The notes: generated from the letters alone by a model not told the origin. Counted from the stretch's first letter, positions 15,043-20,592 are shown. The stretch is 20,674 nucleotides of DNA from an uncultured archaeon (GCA_964388035.1 CAYLZE010000094.1:1-20674), one strand, 5' to 3'. Translations and numbers: made by a program.

Positions 15043-15321
15043 TTAATTTTTTATTTCTTGGGTCAGCACATATATCCAAGATTCAAGATATTGACCCTTG
15101 AAGGAATCTTTATCTTCTAAATTATCATATTCCACTTTATACTCGTTCAATAGTTCCATTTTTTTCATTCGTTCCGCATCGAAATATCCTTTAGCAAATT
15201 CTTTTAAAAAAGCTTTTTTTGATTGCTTTGCTTCCTCATTTCTGACTTCCATCTCTTTTTCGGAAGCATATTTTTTTACTCCTTCTACCTTTTCAATTGA
15301 CTGGGTTATAAATACTTGCAT
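15043..15321 (-). CDS. Hypothetical helical protein; paralogue of the central helical segment of the 19846-20463 protein
   Basis: Good RBS (AAGGTGA 7 nt before ATG). 25/50 ungapped identities to the 19846-20463 protein (EFAKGY...DKDSFKGQYLESWIYVLTQEI vs EFAMGY...DKESYKGQSLKNWIDMLNLEI). Confidence 0.8.
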   Translation of the reverse strand: MQVFITQSIEKVEGVKKYASEKEMEVRNEEAKQSKKAFLKEFAKGYFDAERMKKMELLNEYKVEYDNLEDKDSFKGQYLESWIYVLTQEIKN

Positions 15322-15382
15322 TTTTTTATCACCTTAATGTGTAAGTTTATTTTTTATTTCTAAGTAAAAGATGATTAGAATA

Positions 15383-15441
15383 GAATATAAAAAATTTGAT
15401 AAGAAAAATGTTAGTCATTTTGATAAGTTAATTTGTCAAGG
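15383..15441 (-). promoter_or_regulatory. Promoter/operator element, copy A (TATA-like box plus TTGAT-N10-GTCAA palindrome)
   Basis: 47/59 identical to 20534-20592. On the - strand TTTTATAT lies at the gene-proximal end. Palindrome at 15420-15439. Confidence 0.7.
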
Positions 15442-15620
15442 AAAAAAAATATTAATTTTTATAATTATGACATGAATTCCATTTTATTCCTATTTTAAAA
15501 AGGAGATTTGAAGAAATGCTTTTTTAGGAGATATAAAATGGATCCTGAGATAGATTAATTAATTCATCCTTTTCAAATAAATATAAAAAAAAGTAAGTTC
15601 CTCATACATGCGTTAATGCG

Positions 15621-17909
15621 TTAACCGTATAATTGTTCAAGAGTTCCTTTAGTCTCTTCTTCATAGGATTTTTTCGCTCGTTTCACGGTTCCTTTGATTT
15701 TCTCAATAGCTTTATCAAAATCAGATTTCTGGATTTTAACTTTTTTAAATGAATTGGGGTCCTTCTTGTTAATCGTTTCATCAAAAACTCCTCTTCTAAT
15801 AGCAAATAATGTGGCTTCTTCACAGATGCTTTTAATATCTGCACCACTATATCCCTCAACAATCATGGCTAATTCTTTTAAATTGATCTGTTCATCTAAA
15901 GGTTTCTCTTTTAAATGTATCTTAAAGATTTCCTCCCGTGATTCCTTATTTGGAAGGGGAATTTCAATATGACGTCCAAAACGCCCTGATCGCAACAATG
16001 CTGGATCTAGCATGTCTGGTCTATTAGTAGCTGCAATTAAAATTACATCTTTTAATTCTTCTAATCCATCCATTTCAGTTAGTAATTGAGCCACCATTTG
16101 TTCTACCACTTTAGTACTGCTTTCTGCACTGCGTTTAGTGGCTATTGCATCAATTTCATCAAAGAAAATGATGCATGGGTGAACAGTTCTGGCTTTACGA
16201 AAGATCTCTCTCACAGCTTTAGCGCTTTCTCCTACCCATTTGGATAAGAATTCCGGCCCTTTCACTGAGATAAAATTAGCTTCTGTCTCATTTGCAATCG
16301 CTTTTGCTAGCAAGGTTTTTCCAGTTCCAGGAAGTCCAAATAAAAGCACTCCACTGGGGGGCTCAGATTTCATGTGGGCATAAAATTCGGGATACTTTAA
16401 AGGCCATTCGATAATTTCCCTCAATTGTTGCTTGGCTTCTGACAATCCCCCAATATCATACCAAGTTTCAGAAGGTTTAGTAATGAACACTTCTCTTAAG
16501 GCAGACGGTTCAATATAGGTTAAAGCATGTAAGAAATGTTCCATTTTAATTTCAATGCTATTTAATATCTCAGGGGGTATTGGTTTCTCCAAATCAATGT
16601 GAGGAAGGATCTCTTTTATAGCTAACATGGCGGCCTCTTTAGTTAAAGCATTAAAATCGGCTCCCACAAATCCATGTGTCTTTTCTGCCAATAGTTTCAA
16701 ATCCACATCCGGATTTAAAGGCATTCCCCGGGTGTGAATTAATAAAATCTCATACCGGCCATTTACATTAGGAACTCCAATTTCAATCTCTCGATCAAAT
16801 CGTCCCGGTCTTCTTAACGCTACATCAATTTTATTAATCTTATTGGTGGCTCCAATTATGATAACCTTGCCTCTTTTTTCTAATCCGTCCATTAGGGATA
16901 ATAATTGAGCAACTACTCGTGATTCGACTTGACTCCCTCCTTCATCTTGTTTGCTAGCAATCGAATCGATTTCATCAAAAAATATAATGCTGGGCGAGTT
17001 TTCTTTTGCTTCGTCAAAAATTTTCCTGAGATTTTCTTCGCTCTGTCCAAAAAATTTACTCATTATTTCTGGGCCACTAATAGAAATGAAATGGGCATCC
17101 GTTTCATATGCAACGGATCTCGCTAATAATGTTTTACCCGTGCCAGGAGGTCCGTGAAGCAAAACTCCTTTAGGAGGACTAATCCCAATTTTTTCGAATA
17201 ATTCTGGATGAAGAATCGGTAGCTCTATCATTTCTCTTATTTTTTGAATTTCTTCTTCCAACCCCCCAATATCTTCATATGTTATGCGCGTTGCCATTTT
17301 ATGCATTTCTTCTTCAATATTACTGATTGCTTCGTATTTTACATGGGAGATTGGTTTTTGTTTCAACTCGATATCTTGCTTTTCAGCAAAAGATATTTTA
17401 GTATCTAGTGAAATTCTCACGACGTCTGACTTCGGCTTAAAATCGATAACAACCAAATCCACTCTTCGTCCCATGGCATAAAAACTCAATCTATCTCCGA
17501 TTGTAAGCGCTCTCTTTTCTAATTTTCGTGCTAAATATTCGGAATCTCTTATTAAATACGATCGCTCTAATCCCGTGAGAAAAATCTCCTCTGCAATTGG
17601 CGCTTCTATTCTCCTTATTTCAACATAATCATCAATGGAAGCATTAATATTCTTTCTTTCAGAAGGGTCCATCCTGATGATATTAGATCCCTTATCTTCA
17701 TTTTTTCCCACCATTGCCATTGCAGCTGTTTTTGCATTATCAATCGGATGACGTATTTCAATAATATCTCCCGATTCTAAATTAAGTGTAGAAATCACGT
17801 CCGGATCAATCCTAACAATCCCTCGTCCGACATCTTCCTTGAAGGAATCTTTAATTCTTAATTTTATTCTCTTTTGATTTGAATCGGGTACTAATTTTTT
17901 GGATATCAC
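15621..17909 (-). CDS. cdc48: Cdc48/p97/VAT type II AAA+ ATPase
   Basis: N-domain ([10 protein letters not shown]), D1 GPPGTGKT / FFDEID / [12 protein letters not shown]2 GLPGTGKT / SKWVGES / FFDEID / ATNRPD / LLRSGRF, C-terminal LYG (HbYX). GTG start after GAGGCGA. Confidence 0.96.
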
Positions 17910-17972
17910 CTTTTATCGCCTCTTTTATTTAAATATGCATTCTTTTTTTTAAATTTGCACTCTTTATTTTAG

Positions 17973-17988
17973 AAAAAAAAAAAAAAAA
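17973..17988 (-). terminator. T16 tract (on - strand) downstream of the mtd-like gene
   Basis: A16 homopolymer on + strand, 24 nt beyond the stop at 18013; oligo-T tracts are the typical archaeal intrinsic terminator. Confidence 0.55.
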
Positions 17989-19011: not shown

Positions 19012-19072
19012 TTTTTATACCATCTCGCTTTAATTTAGTTAAAATTATAAAAATTTAGAAAAAATCCCAAAT

Positions 19073-19828
19073 TTATTCTTTCTCACGTATCTTTACTTCC
19101 ACTTCTTTCTCCATTTCTTTCTCTACTTCTTCTGTCTTAATGCTCTTCTTTATCTTGATTTTTTCTGTCTCGACGCCTAAAGATTCGGCAAGATCATCTA
19201 AACCATCAAAATGTCTCTTATCGCAGATAAAAAATCCTTTTAACTTATTAGTTTCTACATTTTTACCGATATCTTTTGCTAAATTAAGAATATTCATCAT
19301 CATCCACGCTTCTCTTACCTTATATCTCACCTCATCTTCCTGATCATCATAGTCCTTCTTTAGATATTCTTTCCATATTAATAAACGTTGAAACTCTTCG
19401 TCCTCCATTGGCGCTTTTCCTTCTTTTTCTATAATTTCTTTAATCCTTTGTTCAAGTTTCATCATAATTTCTCTATGTTCATCCAATGCTGTTGAAAGGT
19501 ATCCTTCGGCACTTTCCTCAATATCGGCATGTTTAAACGGGACTTTATTATGCTGGAAGAGTGCTTTTAGTGGATCTTTTTCATTATTATTATAACTATT
19601 CGGTCTCTCTTCAAGAGCAAAATCGGGCTTATATTTCTCAACCAGACTTTCAATTAAATCCAAATATTCCCTTGAAATCAAATGCAAATTCCACACCAAG
19701 TCCTCTTTGAGTTCTTCAGGCACTTCGAACCACCAATCGATGGGGAATTCACTCTCTACCAATATCAATTTTAAAACCTTCTCCTTAAGTGGCTTTAATT
19801 CCAACACTCGATTTGACATTTTTTTCAT
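19073..19828 (-). CDS. Hypothetical protein, probable TraB/GumN/TIKI-superfamily fold; likely true start at 19819
   Basis: LHLISREYLDLIESLVEKYKPDFALEE resembles the TraB H-x-S...PD-x-V-x-x-E segment; VREAWMMMNIL and GFFICDKRHFDGL resemble the R-x3-M and VVGxxHxxG segments. GAGGT is spaced for the second ATG. Confidence 0.55.
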   Translation of the reverse strand: MKKMSNRVLELKPLKEKVLKLILVESEFPIDWWFEVPEELKEDLVWNLHLISREYLDLIESLVEKYKPDFALEERPNSYNNNEKDPLKALFQHNKVPFKHADIEESAEGYLSTALDEHREIMMKLEQRIKEIIEKEGKAPMEDEEFQRLLIWKEYLKKDYDDQEDEVRYKVREAWMMMNILNLAKDIGKNVETNKLKGFFICDKRHFDGLDDLAESLGVETEKIKIKKSIKTEEVEKEMEKEVEVKIREKE

Positions 19829-19845
19829 ACCTCTTTTTATTTAAT

Positions 19846-20463
19846 TTATAAAATTATATTCTTAACTGTATGAACTTTATTAAAATTTATGACCTTAACT
19901 TCCATTTCCCTTAAAGATTCAACTACTTGGGAACATATGTCTTCACATATATCTTTTTGGACAAAATGTATGAATGAAACAACTTCTTTATCAATCTTTT
20001 TCGCAAAGCTAAGCATTTTTTTAACGATCCATTGGGGTCTTAATCGTAAACTGAGGAAAATCTCCTTTTCCTGTATTTCCAAATTAAGCATGTCAATCCA
20101 ATTCTTAAGACTCTGCCCCTTATACGACTCCTTGTCTTTCATCGATTTATATTCATAAATCAATTCCTCGGCTAATTCTTCTTTTTCCATGATCTCCTCA
20201 TATAAATATCCCATTGCAAATTCGGGAATATCTACTTGATAATAAGGAATCTTGGCGTTAATCAATGTCTTTGCGAATTCATTATTGGTAAAGGTTTTCA
20301 TGTTGACATCAAAATCCACCGTGACGAAATCAATGTGTCTCTCGGCTAAAAATTTCTTTAACTCTTTGACATTGATTTCTTGTAGATCTTTGGAATCTTG
20401 TTTCGAAAAGATATACGCAATGACTTTTTTATTTTCTAAGGGCTTTAATTCTAAAACTTCCAT
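19846..20463 (-). CDS. Hypothetical protein, paralogue of 19073-19828 lacking its putative catalytic His residues
   Basis: Shares VLELKPL, PxxxxDIxExAxGYL and RxxW motifs with the downstream ORF. Start moved from TTG 20514 to ATG 20463 because GAGGTG precedes that ATG and the TATA-like box is at about 20536-20543. Confidence 0.7.
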   Translation of the reverse strand: MEVLELKPLENKKVIAYIFSKQDSKDLQEINVKELKKFLAERHIDFVTVDFDVNMKTFTNNEFAKTLINAKIPYYQVDIPEFAMGYLYEEIMEKEELAEELIYEYKSMKDKESYKGQSLKNWIDMLNLEIQEKEIFLSLRLRPQWIVKKMLSFAKKIDKEVVSFIHFVQKDICEDICSQVVESLREMEVKVINFNKVHTVKNIIL

Positions 20464-20533
20464 TTTTTTTAACACCTCAGTTTTTATACTTAATTCGTTA
20501 TTATTTATTCTCAAGATATGAAACTTTTAGCCC

Positions 20534-20592
20534 GAATAAAAAGAATTTGATAAGAAAAATGATAGTTACCTTGACTAAAAAAATTGTCAAGG
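20534..20592 (-). promoter_or_regulatory. Promoter/operator element, copy B (perfect CCTTGAC-N10-GTCAAGG palindrome)
   Basis: Perfect 7-bp inverted repeat at 20569-20575 / 20586-20592. 47/59 identical to 15383-15441. An extra AAATTGTCAA direct repeat occurs at 20611-20620. Confidence 0.72.

Follow-up and report, generated by a model that had tools for sequence, protein, structure and literature searches.

A probable MtdA-associated, TraB/Tiki-like domain family of archaea and its later split beside a Cdc48 paralogue and a mini-protein

Proteins of the TraB/PrgY/GumN family (PF01963) combine a parallel-stranded alpha/beta core with a helical subdomain. Tiki-type enzymes carry two histidines, two glutamates and one arginine in the active site, and ChaN, another member of the superfamily, is a binding protein and not an enzyme. 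We know of no biochemical role that has been assigned to the TraB family in archaea. MtdA of Methylorubrum extorquens is a stand-alone dehydrogenase of about 288 amino acids (aa). FolD, with a related dehydrogenase domain, is the precedent for two consecutive one-carbon (C1) steps in one polypeptide, and archaeal Cdc48/VAT has a full N-D1-D2 architecture with an HbYX-like C-terminus. In this study, we analysed a locus in which genes for an MtdA-like protein and a Cdc48 paralogue stand beside three hypothetical genes, here called A1, A2 and the mini-gene. The locus lies on a stretch of 20,674 nucleotides (nt), hereafter the window, which is the whole of contig C94 from a 5.47-Mb, 97%-complete metagenome-assembled genome (MAG) of an uncultured Asgard archaeon of Lokiarchaeia type. 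The explanation that we consider probable is that the three hypothetical proteins belong to a TraB/Tiki-like family associated with MtdA, and that the locus was later split and joined by Cdc48 and the mini-protein.

The five genes are all on the minus strand and run from the contig end inward in the order A2, A1, MtdA-like gene, Cdc48 gene and an open reading frame (ORF) of 92 aa, the mini-gene, with gaps of 17, 61, 103 and 299 nt between successive genes. The genes and the two upstream blocks discussed below are as follows.

19846-20463, minus strand: A2, stand-alone paralogue, 205 aa from ATG or 222 aa from an upstream TTG
19073-19828, minus strand: A1, TraB/Tiki-like domain protein, 251 aa, the split-off counterpart of the N-terminal domain of fusions of about 560 aa with MtdA
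18013-19011, minus strand: predicted MtdA-family NAD(P)-dependent methylene-tetrahydromethanopterin (H4MPT)/tetrahydrofolate (H4F) dehydrogenase, split form, 332 aa, recognised by Pfam Mpt_N
15621-17909, minus strand: cluster-specific Cdc48/p97 paralogue with N domain, D1 and D2, 762 aa, recognised by Pfam and by its place in the tree
15043-15321, minus strand: 92-aa mini-protein, a copy of the A2 helical hairpin without the alpha/beta core, recognised by BLASTP against A2 and by its conservation
20534-20599, minus strand: upstream block of A2, with the palindrome CCTTGAC-N10-GTCAAGG at 20569-20592
15383-15448, minus strand: upstream block of the mini-gene, with TTGAC-N10-ATCAA at 15420-15439, a 77%-identical copy of the A2 block

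An earlier note on this DNA had proposed that the three hypothetical ORFs are one paralogue family bracketing an mtd-family gene and cdc48 on one strand. The layout above bears out the second part, and the alignments bear out the first. A1 and A2 were 29% identical over 114 aa in BLASTP (E 2e-7). When profiles of 61 relatives of each were compared in hhalign, 189 columns aligned (94% probability, E 1.3e-7); the alignment starts at the VLELKPL that both have at the N-terminus and reaches the last strand, so that the end-to-end relationship claimed for the 251-aa and approximately 205-aa proteins holds. The 92-aa ORF, which the same note had likened to the central helical segment of A2, is identical to residues 78-130 of A2 at 25 of 53 positions (47%, ungapped, E 4e-12). 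These three were the only family copies found when the whole 5.47 Mb was searched in six frames with A2. A1 and A2 have well over a hundred close relatives each (57-88% identity), all from Promethearchaeota/Asgard MAGs, all annotated as hypothetical and none with a Pfam domain; for A2 the identity is 60-83%, and nearly every relative has a length of 205 aa. The family is narrow, with 73 clusters recovered by an exhaustive profile search of 1.84 billion cluster representatives. A complex prediction for A1 and A2 gave a score of 0.00, which carries no information either way.

The primary partner of the domain family is MtdA. The 332-aa protein is predicted to be an MtdA-family NADP-dependent methylene-H4MPT/H4F dehydrogenase: its residues 33-329 align with residues 2-287 of M. 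extorquens MtdA (1lu9 and 6tge, E 1e-30), and it contains Pfam Mpt_N (PF09176; 84.8 bits against a cut-off of 27) plus a Rossmann domain. A whole-genome profile search detected the A1 domain in 83 of 301 Asgard genomes, mostly within open frames of 550-580 aa. Scoring ORF by ORF identified these frames as fusions of about 560 aa in which A1 is the N-terminal domain (A1~MtdA), and A1 and MtdA are fused in 37 loci of Asgard relatives. Public genomes scanned at one per species yielded 38 further loci, most from Bathyarchaeia and some from Asgard; 37 are fused, and the stretch of the 38th ends before the MtdA part, so that neither fusion nor Cdc48 can be scored there. A database search for longer proteins returned 104 of 454-568 aa, all with Mpt_N and all annotated as NAD(P)-dependent methylene-tetrahydromethanopterin dehydrogenase or MtdB. 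The reverse order, MtdA~A1, was found in one protein. The fusions are unlikely to be artefacts of assembly or gene calling because they recur on hundreds of independent contigs. Fusion to MtdA, in either order and in the majority of lineages, makes C1 metabolism the primary context of the domain.

Like M. extorquens MtdA, both the 332-aa protein and the C-terminal part of the fusions (about 330 aa) align over all of MtdA. Unlike the bacterial enzyme, the archaeal form adds a TraB-like N-terminal domain of about 230 aa or a separate A1, has an extra linker or extension of about 32 aa with an ILELTPI motif, and in Lokiarchaeia is accompanied by the paralogous partner A2. In the split MtdA-like protein, this N-terminal extension of about 32 aa contains SILELTPII. 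A similar peptide, [VI]LEL[KT]P[LI]-x-x-KK, precedes the A1 and A2 domains at the N-terminus as well as the MtdA domain (window 18925-18956 and 20425-20456). It recurs in the inter-domain linker of the fusions, for example KSILELSPIKVKKK (loci L035-L103), and is weaker in distant Asgard lineages. Possible roles for the peptide are in docking, as a repeated strand, or in arm exchange.

The loci fall into three types. Type I consists of A1~MtdA alone and occurs in distant Asgard families and Bathyarchaeia. Type II, found in Lokiarchaeia-level lineages, has A2 directly 5' of A1~MtdA. Type III, in which A2, A1 and a separate MtdA are followed by Cdc48, was found only in the window's own GTDB family, a single Lokiarchaeial family; the set comprises 25 split loci, the window and 24 from relatives. 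Types II and III are both present in some genomes, once on one contig (L075). One locus (L036, G147:C8:254000-273999) is a tandem amplification of A2, A1~MtdA, A2, a stand-alone A1 of 232 aa and A1~MtdA, and seems to catch the process of duplication and fission midway. The linkage that the earlier note had described thus stands for mtd, which is fused to A1 in most lineages, and shrinks to one family-level clade for cdc48. The same division applies to its suggestion of a role in Cdc48-proteasome proteostasis or in C1 metabolism: the fusion of A1 to MtdA speaks for the C1 side, and the Cdc48 side concerns that clade only.

Across phyla, the context of the locus is consistently H2/NADPH/F420-linked C1 metabolism. 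In Thor-/Hermod-type lineages, genes for an HdrA-like protein, MvhG, MvhA and A1~MtdA lie on one strand; the HdrA-like protein has 848 aa, an N-terminal DUF7347 winged helix and a C-terminal MvhD. The HdrA-MvhG-MvhA operon is divergent from A2 in Lokiarchaeia, and in one genus HdrBC-like, HdrA, MvhD and FrhB genes stand in for it. NfnA and NfnB adjoin the locus in other lineages. In Bathyarchaeia, the fused gene usually has an F420-dependent Mtd gene as its neighbour, often with FrhB or Ftr nearby. Contig C28 of the window's own genome (G000:C28:4-4462) opens with a winged-helix-turn-helix (wHTH)-HdrA/MvhD gene that lacks its first 48 residues (cut at residue 49), followed by MvhG and MvhA. 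Because of the synteny with relatives, the window end almost certainly abuts this operon, and C94 and C28 are probably neighbours with about 250 nt missing between them. FTHFS and FTCD_C were looked for in the genome and not found. From the fusion and its surroundings, it is probable that the domain is built into the archaeal NADP-type methylene-H4MPT dehydrogenase as an accessory module, with A2 as a partner subunit. It would then be an accessory module of H2/NADPH-linked C1 metabolism, possibly a hydrolytic one.

Two further associations were seen around the fused genes. A stand-alone DUF7347 (winged-helix) protein of 93 aa, the domain that caps the HdrA-like protein elsewhere, overlaps the start of the fused A1~MtdA gene in two loci (L111:3673-3954 and L112:1764-2045). 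In nearly all Bathyarchaeial loci (L153-L180), the gene for a PhoU/AbrB-type regulator, a protein of about 340 aa with PhoU and AbrB/MazE domains, is convergent directly after A1~MtdA, and this pairing is also present in the Asgard locus L037 and in L061.

A1 is likely a distant member of the TraB/Tiki superfamily. AlphaFold2 models of A1 and A2 (predicted local distance difference test scores of 75 and 85, respectively) have the topology strand-helix-strand-helix-strand, long helical hairpin, strand-helix-strand, with five strands alternating with helices in A1. VIA-align listed mostly generic helical-hairpin matches; the best whole-domain matches of A1 were 8b6h_DQ (Z 8.6, 144 residues aligned, root-mean-square deviation 4.5) and ChaN (2g5g; Z 7.9, 148 residues, 3.8). 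A profile of 38 Asgard TraB proteins matched the sequence common to 7w5z chain E and 8b6h as well as 8bqs_DQ (E 8.7e-9). All of these sequences are named TraB family protein, in agreement with the TraB-family subunit COXTT5 reported for that complex (PMC10060162). When 25 diverse A1-type sequences were compared with the 38 TraB proteins, hhalign gave 71.6% probability and E 3.5e-5 over 114 columns, which as a single targeted comparison lends moderate support. This match improved as diversity was added (E 0.26, then 0.0023, then 3.5e-5), and each of the alignments brought together the R-x-x-[WY]-[MV] helix and the strand-x-x-x-H-x-x-G block, pairing R172 and H206 of A1 with R203 and H231 of TraB. 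By language-model features, the nearest named ESM Atlas cluster was TraB/GumN (score 0.83). A search of the PDB sequences with the A1 and A2 alignment profiles gave no match. A2 is placed in the superfamily because it is homologous to A1. The family scores below the Pfam threshold for TraB and stands as a family of its own, without a name. The arrangement had been called undescribed, and no Pfam/NCBIfam model covers it; neither did we find a paper describing the domain, the fusion or the cluster in the literature on MtdA/MtdB in Asgard/Bathyarchaeota and on Asgard Cdc48 paralogues. A family without relatives, on the other hand, it is not, given its place in the TraB/Tiki superfamily. We attribute to chance an NCBIfam match of A2 to FolD, which reached E 0.03 and 13.5 bits where the cut-off is 392.

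A1 shares with TraB the parallel-strand alpha/beta core plus helical subdomain and, co-linearly, KPD-x4-E-[EL], the R-[DE]-x-[WY]-[MV] helix and a strand followed by x-x-x-H-x-x-G. It differs in that the first His motif is lost, with Glu, Lys or Arg in its place, that the Gly of the second GxxH is replaced, that the helical subdomain is extended to a hairpin of about 70 residues, and that the N-terminal VLELKPL is conserved. Unlike TraB, it is fused to or encoded beside MtdA, an architecture that we did not find described. E74 is invariant across 64 A1 domains and is the only invariant column among 25 diverse representatives; R172, W175, H206 and G209 are at least 90% conserved. The A1 motif KPDFAxEE after strand 2 parallels KPDVVAVEL of TraB. 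At the first motif (GxxH; HTD in TraB), where H26 is invariant among the 38 TraB proteins, A1 has no His: the residues are E25-S-E27 in Lokiarchaeia and E, K, R or Q elsewhere. At the second, replacement of the Gly before the His gives C/S-x3-H. A2 has lost both His, has Asp in place of the Glu and keeps R142, and its second-His site is an invariant C173-x3-C177. The labels enzyme-like for A1, as in the earlier note, and degenerate for A2 are therefore fair as descriptions, with any activity being putative.

The cluster Cdc48 has two AAA and two AAA_lid_3 domains, CDC48_N and CDC48_2 in Pfam, and ends in LYG, which is HbYX-like. In these features it resembles archaeal Cdc48/VAT; it differs in being a lineage-specific paralogue tied to a metabolic cluster, with neighbours that have no recognisable cofactor domain. 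The genome contains at least four full-length Cdc48 paralogues. In a maximum-likelihood tree, 23 cluster-linked copies form a clade with 100/100 support on a branch of 0.24, whose sister group includes, from this genome, the nearest of its other copies and, from type II genomes, the one counterpart that they have. The monophyly of this clade indicates that the cluster Cdc48 is a lineage-specific duplicate that travelled with the split locus. A full-length Cdc48 lies downstream on the same strand in 23 of the 25 split loci, within about 100 nt in 19 and after a 3.8-kb insertion in four; of the remaining two loci, one has only a 335-aa Cdc48 fragment and the other runs off the contig. The insertion (L078, L079, L080 and L083; L079:11493-15165) consists of an NfnA-like gene and an FrhB~NfnB fusion. 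The latter is 928 aa long, and the pair is an unusual F420-linked Nfn-type module. This conservation makes a functional tie between the cluster Cdc48 and the locus suggestive as far as gene order and phylogeny can tell.

The mini-protein is kept as an ORF of 77-104 aa 3' of Cdc48 in 11 related loci and in the window; in these 12 of the 25 split loci, the gene lies 23-299 nt after Cdc48. Its core reads EF-x-x-GY...QLNEY...DKDSF-x-x-QY. Pairwise dN/dS values, the ratios of nonsynonymous to synonymous substitution rates, were 0.23-0.25 for close pairs with a median of 0.45, and by these values the mini-gene is a real gene under relaxed purifying selection. Since its N-terminus is a degenerate copy of the A2 N-terminal peptide, the mini-protein looks like A2 without the alpha/beta core and with the C-terminus cut after the hairpin.

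The A2 gene and the mini-gene also have a duplicated upstream element in common, as had been noticed earlier: the 66 nt at 15383-15448 match those at 20534-20599 with 77% identity. In both blocks, a TATA-like stretch and a GGTG ribosome-binding site follow a TTGAY-N10-RTCAA palindrome, whose variants are TTGAC-N10-GTCAA before A2 and TTGAC-N10-ATCAA before the mini-gene. Base composition predicts about 52 genomic occurrences of the looser palindrome pattern, and 80 were counted; the strict 7-6-7 palindrome occurs only twice. The other strict TTGAYAA-N6-TTRTCAA palindrome (G000:C96:19380-19399) lies about 490 nt from a contig end and is followed by no ORF of at least 90 aa. In 19 of 26 type III loci the palindrome is near -126 from the A2 start (-118 to -140), and in three more it is at -187; it sits between the divergently oriented A2 and wHTH-HdrA genes. 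Of 19 type II loci, only 2 have it upstream of A2, and 5 of 13 loci have it upstream of the mini-gene.

Several results weigh against the favoured explanation, that of a TraB/Tiki-like, MtdA-associated family later split with Cdc48 and the mini-protein. In Pfam and NCBIfam searches at E <= 1, A1, A2 and the 92-aa protein had no match to PF01963 and none above chance level to any other model, and Foldseek found none in the PDB at E <= 0.001 for the A1 and A2 models. The Z scores of A1 (7.9-8.6) are in the range that the tool calls common, and tetrapyrrole-methylase N-domains score alike (Z 7.3-8.4) over about 100 residues. A2 alone did not match TraB in hhalign (E 0.2). The absence of the first catalytic His from A1 makes hydrolase activity doubtful. 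Canonical Mch, F420-dependent Mtd and FolD are present elsewhere in the genome, and there is therefore no pathway gap calling for a new enzyme. The split forms do not make a clean monophyletic group in a quickly built MtdA tree that lacks support values. The link to Cdc48 is known from one family and may reflect inherited gene order, with the Nfn insertion ahead of Cdc48 in four loci, and the mini-gene was detected in only 12 of the 25 split loci.

The last of these points lead to the alternative that survives best, namely that the adjacency of Cdc48 and the mini-gene has no function. The adjacency would then go back to a segmental duplication, the mini-gene would be a truncated A2 remnant, the gene order would be kept by descent, and A1 and A2 would act solely with MtdA. 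We consider this tenable, although on the unlikely side. In its favour, the split loci are all from one GTDB family, and no Cdc48 was found in the flanking sequence, fetched for 6-9 kb to either side where the contig was long enough, of the 37 fused loci of Asgard relatives or of the 37 scorable loci among the 38 of the public scan. The 3.8-kb Nfn-type insertion separates MtdA from Cdc48 in four loci, and about half of the split loci lack the mini-gene or have none that was detected. The 103-nt gap between MtdA and Cdc48 in the window has an AT-rich repeat of its own, which could be a separate promoter. However, the cluster Cdc48 is long-branched and monophyletic with 100/100 support, it stays in place while A1 diverges to 57% identity, and it is still downstream on the same strand despite the Nfn insertion. 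The frame of the mini-protein is open with dN/dS of 0.23-0.45, and the mini-gene has the A2 operator in 5 of 13 loci. At the opposite extreme, the split TraB-like/MtdA assembly would have in Cdc48 and the mini-protein a private machinery for its remodelling or degradation, and the whole cluster would be switched in response to H2 by the neighbouring DNA-binding HdrA-hydrogenase via the shared operator, which at present seems quite improbable.

It is also conceivable, but unlikely, that A1 is a true second C1 enzyme. The fusion would then be bifunctional like FolD, with A1 as a hydrolase on methenyl- or formyl-H4MPT (a cyclohydrolase or deformylase). The conservation of the Tiki-type Glu (E74), Arg (R172) and second His (H206) from Lokiarchaeia to Bathyarchaeia fits such a role, and so do the occurrence of the fusion in both domain orders and the usual position of the fused gene beside the F420-dependent Mtd gene, sometimes near Ftr. 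On the other hand, A1 has not kept the first His, one of the sampled lineages (L037) has Gln at the place of H206, the genome has canonical Mch and FolD, and the superfamily member ChaN binds its ligand without being an enzyme. FolD itself differs from A1~MtdA in that both reactions take place in one site and no extra domain is present. A second activity of A1 is hypothetical, and a canonical FolD is present elsewhere in the genome. The more specific idea that A1 is a new cyclohydrolase filling a gap found no support, canonical Mch, F420-dependent Mtd and FolD being present. We hold it doubtful that a C1-carrier intermediate is hydrolysed in the A1 pocket; if not, the pocket would bind a ligand or serve as a docking platform.

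Least probable of all is a heteromer of active A1, inactive A2 and the mini-protein as mimic or adaptor that serves Cdc48-proteasome proteostasis, for example as substrate adaptors, with MtdA as a passenger: the dedicated Cdc48 paralogue with its HbYX-like C-terminus, the similar N-terminal peptide [VI]LEL[KT]P[LI] on A2, A1 and MtdA and the hairpin-only mini-protein directly after Cdc48 would suit it, but the family and the peptide long predate the Cdc48 link, being present in Bathyarchaeia and in distant Asgard fusions with no Cdc48 in the fetched flanks, and the peptide also stands in the fusion linker, which makes it a structural feature of the enzyme and not a tag with its origin in the Cdc48 link. 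Pfam/NCBIfam detected none of the known Cdc48-cofactor domains (UBX, SHP, VIM or Ufd1/Npl4-type) in A1, A2 or the 92-aa protein, short linear motifs not having been searched.

The explanation that we favour can be put together as follows. A1, A2 and the 92-aa protein belong to one unnamed archaeal family, which would be a remote and in part degenerate member of the TraB/Tiki/ChaN superfamily. Its ancestral and most widespread form would be the N-terminal domain of the fusion of about 560 aa with NADP-type MtdA in Asgard and Bathyarchaeia. Since the fusion gene is set among genes for making or using H2, NADPH or F420H2 (wHTH-HdrA/MvhD-MvhG-MvhA, NfnAB, FrhB, F420-dependent Mtd and Ftr), the family is probably a partner of MtdA in the C1 pathway that uses H4MPT. 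A2, with both His lost, would have come to be encoded directly upstream in Lokiarchaeia-level lineages. In one family, a duplicated locus would then have split into A2, A1 and MtdA, gaining a duplicated Cdc48 and a hairpin-only derivative of A2 and bearing the conserved palindromic operator. The Glu-His-Arg pocket of A1 may bind or hydrolyse a ligand related to the C1 carrier, A1, A2 and the mini-protein may associate via their hairpins, and the dedicated Cdc48 may remodel or turn over the MtdA assembly.

The proteins of about 560 aa are annotated only as methylene-H4MPT dehydrogenase, and a conserved domain of 230 residues without a family name has been overlooked in them. If it is an accessory module of the dehydrogenase, the domain would provide a rare functional context for the TraB family and a testable handle on how H2, NADPH and F420 are coupled to the C1 pathway in uncultured archaea. 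In the Lokiarchaeial split cluster, the closest prokaryotic relatives of eukaryotes offer a candidate for an AAA+ unfoldase that is dedicated to a metabolic enzyme. Were the private remodelling system and its operator switch real, they would amount to hydrogen-responsive transcriptional and post-translational control of a Wood-Ljungdahl step in Asgard archaea.

Outside the cluster, a row of minus-strand genes at 4194-13035 of the window encodes an SF1B helicase (1494 aa, AAA_11/AAA_12), an Mre11-like phosphoesterase and a Rad50-like ATPase. A gene for a pyridine-nucleotide disulfide oxidoreductase of 508 aa (window 13354-14880) lies directly 3' of the mini-gene on the same strand, and a homologue of this oxidoreductase adjoins one of the fused loci (L085).

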